Below, piece by piece: positions 11,010 through 17,054 of a stretch of 63,644 bases of DNA. The translations under genes and the position numbers were made by a program. This DNA comes from an uncultured Methanosarcinales archaeon (GTDB taxonomy: Archaea > Nanobdellota > Nanobdellia > Woesearchaeales > GW2011-AR9), in contig CAZNUS010000001.1 in assembly GCA_964576385.1 (NCBI GenBank), forward strand, positions 30,668 to 94,311. Direction: 5' to 3'. Each line of letters opens with the position of its first letter. Position 1 is the stretch's first letter. The notes below the pieces were generated by a model, which was not told where the DNA came from, made no database searches, and saw nothing but the letters and a program-made list of their open reading frames with translations.

Positions 11010-11153
11010 AGTAGCGAACATTCATTTTATTCTAATAATTTATCGCTACTATACTCTAAAATAACCGACAGTTATTTTAGGTACAAAAATGAATAGTTTT
11101 TCATTTTTTGTATATAAAAAACATAACTATTTAGATTATTAGTTATGTTTTTT
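11010..11153. repeat. cluster of four palindromic modules (family E, copy 2)
   Basis: Four hairpins are present: AGTAGCGA...TCGCTACT (11010-11050), CTAAAATAAC-CGACA-GTTATTTTAG (11056-11080), GTACAAAAATGAA-TAGTTT-TTCATTTTTTGTAT (11081-11113) and AAAAAACATAACT...AGTTATGTTTTTT (11116-11153). The last two match 2462-2514 over about 50 nt. Confidence 0.85.
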
Positions 11154-11586
11154 AGTAGATCATCTTTTCTTCGATATTTTTGAGGTTATTATTTATAATA
11201 ATTGGCTGCATTCCATCAACTTCTTCTTGAAGGTCAGATTGAGGAATTCCATTGAGGAGATAAATCCGCTTATTCCTGGAAAAAGCATACCCCATTTCCA
11301 AAAAGGTATTTGGTCCAATATAATTCTTTTTCTTGTTTTTATCATAATTCAATATTAAGATAGCTTCGGCTTGATCAATCTTGTTAAAATGCATCTTCAT
11401 ACGTTCTGCTTTTATCTTTGAAAAACGGACAGGATCTTTTTCTTTGATATCATTCCAGTACTGCTTGTCCCAGCCGTGGGCAGCAGAATCTGGCAAGAGA
11501 ACAGTGTGTCCTTCTTTTTGCAGGTGTGCTGCTACTTCATTCATTTGTTGTATGAATTCCAGGCTTCCACAGAGTGTAATAATCAT
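11152..11586 (-). CDS. nucleoside 2-deoxyribosyltransferase-like protein
   Basis: Small Rossmann-like protein. It starts MIITLCGS and has GPNTFLEMGYAFSRNKRIY, which resembles the D-x-G-T-x-x-E-x-G-Y-A catalytic Glu loop of PF05014-type proteins. Confidence 0.45.
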   Translation of the reverse strand: MIITLCGSLEFIQQMNEVAAHLQKEGHTVLLPDSAAHGWDKQYWNDIKEKDPVRFSKIKAERMKMHFNKIDQAEAILILNYDKNKKKNYIGPNTFLEMGYAFSRNKRIYLLNGIPQSDLQEEVDGMQPIIINNNLKNIEEKMIY

Positions 11587-13300: not shown

Positions 13301-14098
13301 CTATTTCAACCCGTCCCAGACATCATTAAACATCGTGTCCATGGAGGAGGTAAAGTAGGGGGTTTTTACCCAGATGCCTAAATCATAGGAAGGATGAACA
13401 TCTTTGTCATCAAGCACCATAAAGACCATATCTTTTCCATCAACAGTCATAAATCTGGATTTAACTTTTTCATTATGCTTGACATCAGCAATTCCTTTTA
13501 ATTCCTGAACAATTTTTTGTCCATCTTTACCTAATGGAGCAGCTATCCTTATTTTTACCCCTTTCTTCTTGGCTTTTTCTAGACTTGCTTTCAATCCTTC
13601 TACTTTTCTTAAGAATCCTTTTTCAGTAGTCATGATGTTTACATTATTCTTCGCTTCTTTTATCAATAAGTCTAAGTGGTTGTATAAATTATGCCTTCCT
13701 CTCAAGCAGCCGCTCAAATCAGTTGGATCTACTAAGGAAATACCTTGGGTATGCAGCGTTTCTAATTCTCCCATCAATGGTGATCCTCTTACACTATCCA
13801 ATCGCTTAACTTTCTCCTGCGCAGTCAGGTGCATGTGTTTTTTTACCCTGTCGACTACTTCTGCTGGCGGAATAGCAATATACTTGATAGGCTTGCCTAG
13901 TTTCATTATTACAAATCCTTTCTTCTCTAAGCTTTCTAGAACATCATAACTTCGAGAGCGTGGAACATCAGCAATATCAGAAAGCTCTCCTGCAGTAGAA
14001 ACTCCTCGGCTTAACAAAGAAGCCCATAGCTTTACTTCGTATAAATTTAAGTCGAAGTAGCGCCTTAATTTACTTAATAAGTCATCTTTTACGATCAT
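13301..14098 (-). CDS. TrmB-family transcriptional regulator
   Basis: N-terminal wHTH LNLYEVKLWASLLSRGVSTAGELSDIADVPRSRSYDVLESLEKKGFV, plus a C-terminal effector-like domain. Confidence 0.8.
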   Translation of the reverse strand: MIVKDDLLSKLRRYFDLNLYEVKLWASLLSRGVSTAGELSDIADVPRSRSYDVLESLEKKGFVIMKLGKPIKYIAIPPAEVVDRVKKHMHLTAQEKVKRLDSVRGSPLMGELETLHTQGISLVDPTDLSGCLRGRHNLYNHLDLLIKEAKNNVNIMTTEKGFLRKVEGLKASLEKAKKKGVKIRIAAPLGKDGQKIVQELKGIADVKHNEKVKSRFMTVDGKDMVFMVLDDKDVHPSYDLGIWVKTPYFTSSMDTMFNDVWDGLK

Positions 14099-14505
14099 TT
14101 TTCACCAATCCCCCTCTTTTAAATTTTTTAATAAACAAAAGTTCATTAAAGCAAAATAACTCAAAATTCACTTCTTAACTGTGCTTAACTTTTGTTACTG
14201 AGATATCAGTAAATCCCACTACTATTAAAAGGTTGTGGTTTTGCAAAATATAGGCTACCTTCTTATTTCCTCTTTTCTTTCCTGAATCTTTTACGATTCT
14301 CCAAGCAGTATGATTATTCAAAATTATTTTTGCACGTTTGCTATCTCAACTTTCATACTGCATGCTAGGGCAGAAATTGTACTTGTGCACTTGATAAATA
14401 TGTAAAGCGGAATAATCTTTGAGGATATCGCTAAATTTTGTTTTGATTTCCATCATTATTTCTCTGGATTGTTCTACCTTATGCGCTGTTAAACTCTCCG
14501 ACCTA

Positions 14506-14604
14506 CGAGTGACCGAAGGGAACGGAGTGGGGAGGACAAGGAGGAACGAAGTGACGACGAAGAGTTATGACGCAAGGACACACGTTCAGGCGAACACAGT
14601 GAGC
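14506..14604. repeat. purine-rich, locally GC-rich segment with a reiterated GAAC-N4-5-AGTGA motif
   Basis: GGGAACGGAGTGG (14518-14530), GGAACGAAGTGAC (14543-14555) and CGAACACAGTGAG (14591-14603) are reiterated. Related TCACGAAC...GTGA hairpins occur at 2531-2556 and 26809-24. Confidence 0.5.
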
Positions 14605-14623
14605 AATTAAAAAACAGTATCAA

Positions 14624-14661
14624 AGACACTCTCATCGTAACACAATCAAAATCGGGGCAGC
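14624..14661. repeat. left arm of the bipartite inverted repeat enclosing pip
   Basis: AGACACTCTCA (14624-14634) and AATCGGGGCAGC (14650-14661) are exact reverse complements of 15738-15748 and 15686-15697. Confidence 0.85.
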
Positions 14662-14723
14662 ATTTTCTTTTTATTATTGTTAAATAGTAACTTATTTAAA
14701 GAAGCTGAGGAATCCAGATATAA

Positions 14724-15686
14724 ATGACACTCAATGAACTTTTTCCAGAAATTGAAACATTTGATGAAGGAAGATTGAAGGTATCAAGTCTTCATGAACT
14801 GTATTATGAGCAGAGTGGTAATCCAGATGGTAAACCAATAGTGTTTCTTCATGGAGGGCCTGGAAGTGGAACAAATCCTAAATATCGTAGATTTTTTGAT
14901 CCTGAGTTTTATAAAATTATTTTATTTGATCAACGAGGAGCTGGGAAAAGTACGCCCCATGCAGATATTAGTGAAAACACAACTCAAGATTTAGTTTTAG
15001 ATATGGATAAATTGCGAGAGCATCTTGGACTTGACGAATGGATGATTTTTGGTGGGAGTTGGGGAAGCACTTTAGCATTATCTTATGCAACTTCTCATAC
15101 TGATAGAGTAAAAGGACTCATTCTTCGCGGTATTTTTCTTTGTAGAGAAAAAGAAATCGCATGGTATTATGAAGAAGGTGGTGCACAAATGGTCTTTCCA
15201 GAAGAATGGGAGAGATATAAAGCACAGATTCCTGGAATTGAACCAGGAAATATGGTTGAAGCATATCATAAATTATTAACAAGTGAAGATGAACGTGTAC
15301 GATTAACTGCTGCATTAGCTTGGAGTAGATGGGAAGCAGCAACATCAAAACTAGAAAATGATGGTAGTTTAACAAGTAAGTTTGAGGATCCACATCTAGC
15401 TTTGTCTTTTGCTCGAATTGAAAATCATTATTTTAGAAATGGAATATTTTTACCATCTGATGATTATTTACTTGGAGAAGTTGCAAAGTTACAAGGAATT
15501 CCAACAAGAATTGTGCAAGGAAGGTATGACATGGTTTGTCCAATTGGAACAGCATGGGAAGTTAAAAAAGCAATGAATTTACTTGATGAAGAATTCCGAG
15601 TTGTAACTGCTGGTCATTCAGCTTTTGAACCGGCAATAAGAAGCGAGTTATTACAAGCGACACAAGACTTCAAGCAATACTTCTAG
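14724..15686 (+). CDS. pip: proline iminopeptidase (prolyl aminopeptidase, S33 alpha/beta hydrolase)
   Basis: HGGPGSG, the nucleophile elbow GGSWGSTLAL, and an overall N-terminus LYYEQSGNPDGKPIVFLHGGPG typical of bacterial Pip. Confidence 0.85.
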   Translation: MTLNELFPEIETFDEGRLKVSSLHELYYEQSGNPDGKPIVFLHGGPGSGTNPKYRRFFDPEFYKIILFDQRGAGKSTPHADISENTTQDLVLDMDKLREHLGLDEWMIFGGSWGSTLALSYATSHTDRVKGLILRGIFLCREKEIAWYYEEGGAQMVFPEEWERYKAQIPGIEPGNMVEAYHKLLTSEDERVRLTAALAWSRWEAATSKLENDGSLTSKFEDPHLALSFARIENHYFRNGIFLPSDDYLLGEVAKLQGIPTRIVQGRYDMVCPIGTAWEVKKAMNLLDEEFRVVTAGHSAFEPAIRSELLQATQDFKQYF

Positions 15687-15748
15687 CTGCCCCGATTCTT
15701 TCTCTTTAATTTTACAAATGCCTAAACATCTTCAAGGTGAGAGTGTCT
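15686..15748. repeat. right arm of the bipartite inverted repeat enclosing pip
   Basis: GCTGCCCCGATT starts at the last base of the pip stop codon. TGAGAGTGTCT lies 40 nt further on. Confidence 0.85.
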
Positions 15749-15787
15749 CTTTACAAAAACTAAGTGTATCCTGAGTAATAATTGAGT

Positions 15788-16891
15788 TTACCACTTCTTA
15801 AACCTTAACAAAGCTCCAATTCCGCCTAATCCGTCCAGTTTTCTCCCAGCTTCATTCTCTGAAGATAAGATATGCACTTCTCCTTTAGCATCGTCAACTT
15901 TTTTCATCAGCTGATCAAGCTCCATAAATCCTGAACTATCTGCTAGCTTATCTTCAACTCGTTTCTCTCTTATTTTTTTATCACTAGCTGTTTTTCTTTT
16001 TCTGATAAATTCTTCAGTAAGAATTAATTTTTCTACTGCTCCTTGCTCAACAGCTGAGATTACTTCTTTCCAGCCATAGGCAGCCAATCCTTCAGTATTA
16101 ATCTCTTTCAGCAGTTCATCGATCAGTACTTTTTCTTCCCTGGCGCGGGAATGCTCTAACACTTTTCTTAATTCTGGGCTTTTGATGACTTCATCCAATG
16201 AAGCTTCAACAACATCTGAACAAGTAGCTAAAGCAATTTTCTGTTTCAGTTCCTTATTGCTTATTTTTTTATACAGTTCTTCTTTATAGAATGCTGGCGA
16301 AGCTAAAATAACCTGTTCGGGATGATAGCGGTTAAAATACGATTCTAAGATACCAAAAATCTCTAAATAGAAATCATTTTTTACTTCATTAGCCTGCGCT
16401 TTTTTCGGAACGTCTCCTTTTAGCTTGGTAAGAATCTCATAGCCAGATTTTTTAGTAAGAGCAAATAAGGCTTCTTCTCTATCTAGAAGACAGATGAGGT
16501 AAGAGTATTTCTTTTGTGCTGCTTCCACTAATTTTTGTTTCTGATAAGACATCCATTGCTTTTTTTCTAAACTAAATTCTGAATCTAATTCCAAGGAAAT
16601 GGATTGATGACTGCCGGCGGGAGCAAATTCCGGCCCCTCCCTAATAGTTCCGTTTATCCTTAGTGAATTCGTTTCCGGCTCTAGATCTACAGTCTCAGCT
16701 TCAATGGTTACGATAAAATATTTTTTTGCTGTTTTGGCGTTTTCACCATCTCCTATCTTAATTTTACGGGAAGTTTTAGCGGTAACTATGTCTTTAGCAT
16801 CAATAAGATGGCTAAGATACCATAAGTCTTCGCTGTCGGTGACTCTTAGCCGTACAATTCCTTTGCGGAAATCCTGATTGATTATTTGCAT
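15788..16891 (-). CDS. pelA: Pelota (mRNA surveillance / ribosome rescue factor)
   Basis: The start was refined to the ATG at 16891 (MQIINQDFRKGIVRLRVTDSEDLWYLSHLI). The eRF1-like three-domain length fits. Confidence 0.85.
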   Translation of the reverse strand: MQIINQDFRKGIVRLRVTDSEDLWYLSHLIDAKDIVTAKTSRKIKIGDGENAKTAKKYFIVTIEAETVDLEPETNSLRINGTIREGPEFAPAGSHQSISLELDSEFSLEKKQWMSYQKQKLVEAAQKKYSYLICLLDREEALFALTKKSGYEILTKLKGDVPKKAQANEVKNDFYLEIFGILESYFNRYHPEQVILASPAFYKEELYKKISNKELKQKIALATCSDVVEASLDEVIKSPELRKVLEHSRAREEKVLIDELLKEINTEGLAAYGWKEVISAVEQGAVEKLILTEEFIRKRKTASDKKIREKRVEDKLADSSGFMELDQLMKKVDDAKGEVHILSSENEAGRKLDGLGGIGALLRFKKW

Positions 16892-17054
16892 ATTGGGACC
16901 ATGAAGAAACACAGATATAAAAATGTTTATATATAGGAAAATTATTTGACTGCATTAAGTCTTACAAACTATCTTACAAACTATTAATCTGCTTAATGAT
17001 ATAAGCTCATAAGATAAACATAAACTAATATAGACGCATAAAAAGGAAACAGAT

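Follow-up and report, generated by a model that had tools for sequence, protein, structure and literature searches.

Inverted repeats around a bacterial-type pip gene mark a probable integron-like cassette in a woesearchaeal genome

Introduction

The recombination sites of integrons share the consensus RYYYAAC / GTTRRRY, and it is with the cassettes of integrons that we compare here a single-gene element in the DNA of an uncultured archaeon of the Woesearchaeales that is present in groundwater samples. The element lies in a stretch of 63,644 nucleotides (hereafter the window; GenBank assembly GCA_964576385.1, contig CAZNUS010000001.1, positions 30,668 to 94,311 of the forward strand), taken from an assembly of 1.53 Mb in 58 contigs with 36% GC that is labelled G000 among the genomes compared. 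It contains pip, a gene for a prolyl aminopeptidase (proline iminopeptidase), between nested inverted repeats. Our analysis indicates that positions 14487-15787 are probably a mobile single-gene pip cassette, part of a gene-capture system of Woesearchaeota (DPANN archaea) that resembles integrons, and present in the window as a solitary insertion away from any array.

Foldback MITEs (miniature inverted-repeat transposable elements) and mobile insertion cassettes (MICs), such as MIC231 of Bacillus cereus, are non-autonomous and bounded by inverted repeats, and the MICs hold passenger genes. The complementarity of their arms is maintained from copy to copy, and their ends are common to all copies and recognised by the transposase. 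The pdif modules of Acinetobacter plasmids are moved by Xer recombinases and flanked by shared 28-bp sites in inverse orientation, and in the attP site of the CTX phage a folded single strand is the substrate of the Xer recombinases. We know of no arrays with private arms, that is, with arm sequences peculiar to each cassette, among these Xer-dependent modules. In the text of Ghaly et al. (2022, PMC9668308), archaeal integrons and clusters of attC sites lacking integron integrases (CALINs) are defined by an IntI-specific model together with canonical attC models. The rAID-1 clusters of gut Bacteroidales have, according to the main text of their description, a XerD-family (non-IntI) recombinase beside a variable gene array, with intergenic repeats that are called reminiscent of integrons (Ross et al., bioRxiv 10.1101/471110). 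Xer-type cassette arrays are not described for Woesearchaeota or DPANN in the literature consulted, supplements and figures aside, and the words "cassette" and "DPANN" are absent from a 2021 review of archaeal tyrosine recombinases.

Results

The pip gene occupies 14724..15686 on the plus strand, encodes 320 amino acids, and is flanked by three pairs of inverted-repeat blocks. Block 1, next to the gene, pairs AATCGGGGCAGC (14650..14661) with GCTGCCCCGATT (15686..15697), and block 2 pairs AGACACTCTCA (14624..14634) with TGAGAGTGTCT (15738..15748). The initial annotation had reported these two pairs, which we call the inner and the outer arm; a direct reverse-complement check found both to be exact, and also found that the inner right arm does begin at the final base of the pip stop codon (TAG, 15684-15686). 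A third, outermost pair, AGGACACAC (14575..14583) and GTGTATCCT (15764..15772), is colinear with the first two and contains a single C.A mismatch in the window copy. The blocks measure 12, 11 and 9 nt, and the spacers between them measure 41 and 15 nt on the left and 40 and 15 nt on the right. Each arm sequence is present at one locus only across the 1.53-Mb assembly. When the 1231 nt from 14560 to 15790 were folded as single-strand DNA, blocks 1 and 2 were paired in the minimum-energy structure and also in the centroid structure.

By sequence statistics alone, the non-randomness of the arm pair is borderline. The inner arm, searched through the window at up to one mismatch, gave 2 matches against 0.10 expected, and none of 100 shuffles reached 2. 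The outer arm gave 3 matches against 0.74 expected, a number reached in 7 of 100 shuffles, and taken alone it is statistically weak. Nested double exact inverted repeats (each repeat of at least 11 nt, arm gaps of at most 60 nt, span 100-3000 nt) were counted 25 times at 21 loci in the real genome, as compared to 1-5 per genome in six block shuffles and 3-8 in six Markov-3 simulations, a control rate that corresponds to approximately 0.1-0.3 expected per window. A genome-wide comparison of the pairing between intergenic flanks (score of at least 20) gave 11 for true partners, 4.2 for permuted partners and 10 in direct orientation; this test did not discriminate because dispersed repeats raise the control scores.

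The arms around pip recur in a second sequence context. Positions 1700-2913 of the metagenome contig L118 correspond to window positions 14566-15780, with 80.7% identity over 1221 nt. The inner arm of L118 (AGAATCGGGACAGT / ACTGTCCCGATTCT) differs from that of the window in two base pairs, both partners being altered in each. One of the two pairs includes the final stop-codon base (TAG in the window, TAA in L118), for which the left arm has the matching C-to-T change. Between the two sequences block 2 does not differ, and it extends to 12 nt in L118; block 3 pairs perfectly there. Across the left arm, 22 of 23 block positions are identical between the window and L118, as against 8 of 15 positions in the spacer between the blocks. 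A chance origin of the arms is excluded because they recur with compensated changes in L118; the judgement of the initial annotation that chance was unlikely thus holds through this conservation, the shuffling that it had suggested being indecisive for the outer arm.

L118 is a contig of 3001 nt with a perfect 629-nt terminal direct repeat, and is either a 2372-bp circle or a tandem repeat. It holds two units, one containing pip and the other, on the opposite strand, a gene for an Rce1-like membrane protease, and each has its own multi-block inverted repeats. The pip unit lies between two canonical junction cores, the two junction copies being in direct orientation. The third copy is in a high-depth contig of run X3 and is approximately 91% identical over a span of 14522-15783. 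Depth over this pip unit was 101-123, whereas it was 3-15 in all but two of the flanking bins, the two exceptions being conserved TrmB DNA. Beyond 14522 and beyond 15783 the X3 contig diverges into unlike sequence, and in the X3 variant ..CCTGTTATATCC directly precedes position 14522. The changes listed for the X3 left arm comprise 1 among 32 positions in blocks, and 8 substitutions plus 1 deleted base (9 in all) among 55 positions in spacers. The pip unit is thus known from three contexts, the gap between the TrmB and pelota genes of the window, L118, and the X3 contig, and in all three pip has the same orientation relative to the arms and the junction module. Contigs of 4 runs from one study contained no joint at the cassette ends; a candidate joint from 13562 to 15700 was not trusted, there being only 21 letters on its shorter side.

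The junctions that bound these units are also found between the genes of arrays. A junction has three parts, in this order: the core ..ATAAC-GAT-GTTAT.., a GC-rich hairpin whose loop is often TTTAT, and a purine tract of the form GAGCGTAGCGAGAAG. It is present in the genome under study on contigs C24, C38 and C41. Exact matches to the 11-mer TAACGATGTTA form same-strand arrays with gene-size spacing, including those on C24 and C38, and the array sites number 12 on contig C2 of genome G011 (64.7-79 kb), 10, 6 and 2 on three contigs of G020 (C116 among them), and 5 in G019. A reversed control pattern was found 0-5 times per strand per genome. The loose pattern ATAAC-N2-5-GTTAT was not enriched (18 found, 15-24 in shuffles), so that only the full core with its hairpin is informative as a site signal.

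The units between successive sites share the architecture seen around pip. In 27 of 34 inter-site units from six arrays, chained exact inverted-repeat blocks of 9 nt or more, adding up to at least 20 nt, were found between the two ends of the same unit, as compared to 6 of 1120 pairings of ends taken from different units, and to none of 34 in direct orientation; some of the units that failed (seven in all) lie between loosely matched sites that are probably false. Pairing in the 27 blocks examined was strictly Watson-Crick with sharp edges, essentially no G.U, and 2 mismatches in total on extension, and with just these 2 mismatches a test for G.U versus A.C bias, as an indicator of strand or of RNA rather than DNA, was uninformative. 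It is the core halves that make up the outermost block, in that a unit begins GTTATnnnn and ends n'n'n'n'ATAAC, and the four private bases covary between units. One unit of the G011 array is present in duplicate (93.5% identical), and the Rce1-like unit of L118 recurs in G020 at 71%. A G011 unit (L178, C2, 11793-13088) shares its arms with the Rce1-like unit of L118 (540-1652), with a T-A to G-C change that is compensated; the cargo differs despite the shared arms, being the Rce1-like gene in L118 and three small open reading frames (ORFs) in G011. Array cargo includes PIN toxins, methyltransferases, LD-carboxypeptidase, Fic, an Mrr-type nuclease and genes of no assigned function, and it lies on both strands relative to the junction sites, as do the ORFs of the G011 array. 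The bounds of this cassette family, core halves together with a junction hairpin and purine tract, are canonical in L118; in the window the left end retains the right core half and the module, and the core half at the right end is degenerate.

Genes lying between 2-4 private exact inverted-repeat blocks were also observed elsewhere in the same genome, at C30:14819-16476, C32:11644-12419, C29:2411-3105 and C46:1510-3497, with GC-rich pyrimidine tracts outside the blocks. These repeat-flanked genes are likely to be further cassettes.

A gene for a tyrosine recombinase of 273 amino acids (C38:3407-4228) is located just past the last array site on C38, on the same strand as the sites. Its orthologue in G011 is 55% identical and has the same position after the last site and the same strand. 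The XerA model NF040815 (cut-off 220) scored the C38 and G011 proteins at 231.7 and 235.5 bits, whereas the integron integrase model TIGR02249 (cut-off 265) gave 192.1 and 216.2 bits in two stretches. In the alignment with PRK15417, residues 191-272 match profile positions 248-329 and approximately 70 positions are skipped. By these profile alignments, the array recombinase is without the IntI-specific additional domain. The genome encodes a second, more distant tyrosine recombinase on C42 (34% identical). There are 13 genomes in which an array-type recombinase (45-61% identical) co-occurs with one or more exact sites. Recombinase and sites lie on one contig and strand, within approximately 6 kb and with the sites upstream, in 6 of these genomes, and in 4 of the other 7 the recombinase gene is no more than 1.5 kb from a contig end, which fits with assemblies breaking at arrays. 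We also observed that the right end of C27 and C38:4501-4564 have a common recombinase-proximal variant of the core (AAC-CTGT-GTTAT plus approximately 55 nt) next to different cassettes; this suggests either two copies, with a repeated site at the array head, or strain or population heterogeneity.

In the window the cassette lies between genes that are adjacent in relatives. On its left is a gene for a TrmB-family transcriptional regulator (13301..14098, minus strand; Pfam PF01978 at 5.3e-18, PF11495), and on its right a gene for Pelota with eRF1-like domains 1-3 (15788..16912, minus strand; Pfam PF03463, PF03464, PF03465). The two genes are neighbours on the same strand at 22 of 28 loci fetched from relatives, and the remaining 6 loci hold TrmB only. 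The gap between them is 64-332 nt at the 22 loci (ten computed directly, and twelve reversed loci by hand from coordinates), as compared to 1689 nt in the window. The spacer of the same-genus genome G001, which was read in sequence, the other 21 being compared by length, contains no copy of the arms and no such hairpin. The short gap in relatives and the absence of arms from the G001 spacer indicate that pip is an insertion at this locus.

The cassette, on the plus strand, measures approximately 1301 nt with its ends placed within about 10 nt from the extent of L118 and X3 homology, the half-core, the end of a gene remnant, and the pelota stop codon. It begins with the right half of the junction core, TGTTAAAC (14487..14494, plus strand; canonical AACGA|TGTTAw), as determined by alignment with 10 array junction sites, and chromosomal sequence stands in place of the left half. 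There follows a junction module (14495..14565, plus strand) made of a short GC hairpin-like stretch and a GC-richer purine tract. The module resembles the one after the core at C38:10709, its purine tract resembles those of the general form at other junctions, and the tract matches junction tracts in five relatives and one further contig of the present genome. The right cassette end is the conserved sequence CTGAGTAATAATTGAGT (15771..15787, plus strand), which in arrays enters the left core half ..TTAAC GAT GTTAT. This end precedes canonical cores in L118 and G020 (L181) and is also found beside the recombinase gene on C38; in the window it is retained, although the core half on this side is degenerate, and abuts the pelota stop codon (15788-15790, TTA on the plus strand), and the C-terminus of Pelota is colinear with that of G001. 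Beside the recombinase gene (L171), at C38:4399-4441, the outer ends of the pip unit, TATGACGCAAGGA and CTGAGTAATATT..TATAAC, stand 12 nt apart, as either a shell without cargo or a remnant of the pip cassette after deletion.

The 625-nt non-coding stretch to the left of pip (14099-14723), which the initial annotation gave as roughly 600 bp with a GC-richer purine tract, is real and the tract is part of the junction module. The stretch is a composite of several parts, and a blastn comparison of it with the genome detected no multi-copy family. Outside the cassette, in the ancestral spacer, is a conserved element 5' of TrmB (14189..14253), which contains the palindrome TTACTGA-GATA-TCAGTAA at 14196-14213 and over 63-65 nt is 82-90% identical in 15 relatives, whereas TrmB coding DNA is 69-77% identical; it is possibly a TrmB operator, a promoter or a small RNA. 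Between this element and the cassette is a 3' fragment, approximately the last 40 codons, of a gene for a double AsnC-type helix-turn-helix (HTH) regulator (14358..14477, minus strand). Full-length genes in G003 (L182:133-1173, an ORF with HTH_AsnC-type and HTH_24 domains) and G013 align with the fragment over their 3' ends. The AsnC remnant terminates at approximately 14477-14486, the left junction of the cassette, and its presence there implies that the spacer went through more than one event. The small ORF 14419-14610 has no Pfam match, and neither Rfam at gathering thresholds nor ARAGORN gave any match in the whole window.

The Pip protein scores 420.8 bits against the TIGR01249 equivalog of NCBIfam (cut-off 259.75), with residues 11-316 on profile positions 2-306 of 307, and contains the Pfam domain Abhydrolase_1; it is predicted on this basis to be a bacterial-type prolyl aminopeptidase. 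The gene is present in 3 of 41 related genomes, including the present one. The copy in G012 is 89% identical and in a different context without repeats, and G032 has weak pip pieces only. Database neighbours of Pip comprise approximately 30 clusters at 66-93% identity, after which identity falls to approximately 60% with bacteria; three of the near clusters have DPANN names, two of Nanoarchaeota type and one with an Aenigmarchaeota/Aenigmatarchaeota label on a metagenome-assembled genome (MAG). In a quick maximum-likelihood tree of 112 rows, with midpoint root only and with rows of fewer than 290 residues and exact duplicates removed, the 9 DPANN-type rows form one clade (SH-aLRT 100) that lies amid bacterial sequences and adjoins Sericytochromatia with weak support (87). 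The phylogeny that the initial annotation had proposed as a means to detect a bacterial donor thus places the clade among bacteria, and leaves the closest neighbour weakly supported under a midpoint root.

Signals for the expression of pip lie within the cassette. The TATA-like box TTATTTAAA (14692..14700, plus strand) is 24-32 nt 5' of the ATG and inside the arms, and we take it to be the pip promoter from what is generally known of archaeal promoters. Upstream sequence is available for 13 other pip loci (L116 and L117 counted as one context), and 12 of them have the core of this box, TATTTAAA, exact or one letter off, no more than 40 nt 5' of the ATG; L118 and L035 have one-letter variants, and L125 is without it. 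A T-rich stretch 3' of pip (15698..15716, plus strand), read from the sequence, is likely to be the terminator. In the arm-less contexts L116/117, L122, L125 and L035, the sequence that natively follows pip is similar to the right inner arm.

Taken with the patchy distribution of a bacterial-type Pip, the adjacency of TrmB and pelota in relatives, and the arms that travel with pip in L118 and X3, these data bear out one of the two origins that the initial annotation had offered, a horizontally acquired single-gene cassette. They do not agree with the other, in which the gene was inserted into a resident palindrome: the G001 spacer, an empty site of the kind at which the initial annotation had proposed to look for a simple hairpin, is without such a hairpin, the arms are unique in the genome, and the inner right arm resembles the native pip 3' flank. 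The likeness to cargo in a hairpin loop is apt as topology, with the correction that the hairpin belongs to the cassette and that the small multi-hairpin elements nearby are of a different family. An example of the latter is a repeat of approximately 150 bp with four consecutive hairpins at window positions of about 11010-11160 (C1:41675-41825), present in about 20 other places including short forms that lack the middle, which is probably a MITE. This repeat was ruled out as a source of the arms, as it is unrelated in sequence to the cassette junctions. The pip arms do not surround any other gene in the 1.53-Mb assembly; it is the different arms of the Rce1-like unit of L118 that recur with other cargo, and this keeps alive, as far as sequence comparison can indicate, one version of the capture idea.

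Discussion

We interpret the pip unit as a cassette that starts with GTTAT and ends with ATAAC, with private Watson-Crick blocks just inside these ends that span the cargo, the three pairs around pip being such blocks. In an excised circle, the right arms, the core and the left arms would fold together into a single long, imperfect hairpin that has the core as its tip, and this hairpin may be the recombination site of the cassette, analogous to the attC of integrons. The recombinase would swap strands in the core at the hairpin tip; because the hairpin would be opened at its tip upon insertion, the arm halves would then come to flank the cargo. Stated alternatively, single-stranded arms may draw two flanking cores together for excision. 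Such a site would be an attC turned inside out, with the AAC/GTT pair, comparable to an R box, in the apical position and the further helices toward the cargo. The insertion target at this locus would be a core-like sequence on the pelota stop codon, and pip would be carried with its own promoter and terminator. A role of the arms at the level of DNA is favoured because Watson-Crick pairing is strict, the left arms lie 5' of the TATA-like box, and cargo orientation is mixed. It is also possible, although we consider it somewhat more apt to fail than to hold, that these arrays represent a second, independently built kind of integron, with a Xer-type recombinase, a hairpin cut at its tip rather than its base, arms that are probably read single-stranded, bacterial genes ferried among DPANN archaea, insertion outside arrays, and L118 as a free circle of two cassettes.

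Several of our results weigh against the interpretation of the pip unit as a mobile cassette. Only two homologous arm-bearing pip sequences are readable in full, and in DNA repeats, compensated changes cannot separate selection for pairing from the maintained identity of inverted copies. The contigs of the runs contain no empty TrmB-pelota joint and no circle junction, and no recombination was seen in them; the crossover point was placed from the limits of homology. With the core degenerate at both ends, the window copy may be immobile now. Comparison of the recombinase-proximal regions of G000 and G011 yielded only a 31-nt match and no conserved attI-like site. Hairpin modules vary even between copies of one cassette, and the counts of recombinase and site adjacency are based on the exact 11-mer, which misses variant cores, in related genomes that are not independent. 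Among 13 other DPANN-type pip loci, arms or cores are found in L118 alone, a scan of the 12 besides L118 having detected zero cores, and pip therefore appears, from its sequence contexts, to move or reside mostly outside cassettes. Either the arms were built around pip's own flank or the arm-less contexts are decayed cassettes, and the Pip tree does not separate these alternatives.

Other explanations of the arms were considered. That two short inverted repeats match randomly in an AT-rich genome can be regarded as already refuted: 1-8 nested doubles do arise per shuffled genome, several unrelated 11-nt exact inverted repeats do lie within 2.2 kb at the locus, and the outer arm is not significant on its own, but both arms sit in non-coding flanks, the third block is colinear with the first two, the changes in L118 are compensated within the same arms, and the architecture recurs in array cassettes far above its rate in the controls (27/34 versus 6/1120). 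An effect at the level of RNA is unlikely. According to this explanation the arms would pair in a long transcript as a processing or stability stem, like those that flank archaeal rRNAs, and thereby cut out the pip message, circularise it or protect it, or remove it as a loop from read-through between pelota and TrmB. The long-range helices are thermodynamically favoured in a single strand, the compensated changes maintain pairing, and in a transcript with the sense of pelota and TrmB (minus strand) the block 3 mismatch would become a G.U pair. The pip transcript would nevertheless be without most arm blocks, because both left arms precede the TATA-like box (-32 to -24) and right block 2 follows the T-rich stretch. 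The 27 blocks with their sharp edges, 2 mismatches and near absence of G.U are also unlike structured RNA, cargo is found in either orientation relative to the junction sites, and the window is without any Rfam match.

The repeats could instead be substrates for inversion, the cargo being flipped by a recombinase or by short-homology recombination. The unit is self-contained between identical inverted copies, arrays have cargo in mixed orientation, and a tyrosine recombinase goes with them. We consider this explanation improbable, in that arms private to each cassette imply no common recognition sequence, a flip of a unit with its own promoter and terminator alters nothing obvious, and three blocks with unequal spacers (41/15 and 40/15) are unlike known inversion sites; the orientation of pip is the same in all three of its contexts, and no strand-changing joint was seen in the contigs. 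More improbable still is that the arms are the terminal inverted repeats of a mobile insertion cassette or of a cargo-bearing MITE with its transposase acting in trans. In favour of such an element, the inverted repeats enclose a passenger gene and no transposase, and small hairpin MITEs are abundant in the genome. Against it, each arm sequence is found once in the genome and the arms vary between cassettes, we recognised no target-site duplication at either end, what is conserved is the direct-repeat cores outside the arms, the linked enzyme is a tyrosine recombinase, and the 150-bp MITE family is unrelated in sequence.

The pip cassette provides a concrete path by which the gene for a bacterial enzyme may pass into, and among, genome-reduced DPANN archaea, and an example of the cassette system at work away from its arrays, at a housekeeping gene's stop codon. 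The compensated changes between two copies are natural evidence for selection on arms that span the cargo. If the proposed mechanism is true, there is structure-specific cassette recombination that is independent of integron integrases, and a direct test would be possible with one small recombinase and short DNA substrates. Surveys of integrons based on IntI and canonical attC models may overlook such arrays.

Compared with known systems, the pip cassette and its arrays differ from foldback MITEs and MICs in that every cassette has arms of its own, and what the cassettes share is a direct-repeat core lying outside the arms. They differ from the Xer-dependent pdif and CTX modules in having a core of approximately 13 conserved nt with an asymmetric GAT centre. 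As far as the main text on rAID-1 describes it, that cluster is the nearest published analogue with a Xer-family recombinase: both have a conserved non-IntI recombinase of the Xer family adjoining a variable gene array. The rAID-1 clusters differ in their bacterial hosts, in a recombinase 5' of co-directional genes, and in immunity-gene cargo, and private inverted repeats that span the cargo are not described for them there, figures and supplements aside.

The likeness to integrons is more extensive. A tyrosine recombinase is found beside an array of exchangeable cassettes with direct-repeat sites (5-12 same-strand sites here), the borders contain conserved AAC and GTT triplets (..ATAAC / GTTAT.. 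here), the halves of the recombination sites are cassette-specific yet complementary, the cargo includes toxin-antitoxin genes, methyltransferases and genes of no assigned function, and bacterial genes are moved into archaea. Unlike in integrons, the array recombinase is without the IntI-specific insertion and is best matched by the XerA model, and there is no local hairpin of 57-141 nt after the ORF, the paired boxes being on opposite sides of the cargo. The R''-L''...L'-R' anatomy of attC does not describe the site found here, in which the AAC and GTT halves are 3 nt apart across GAT. Integron cassettes are mostly promoterless and co-oriented, whereas the cassettes here have their own promoter and carry cargo in both orientations. 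The system is thus integron-like in its working, yet it is without the IntI domain and the local attC, and it differs from integrons in its promoters and in the orientation of its cargo.

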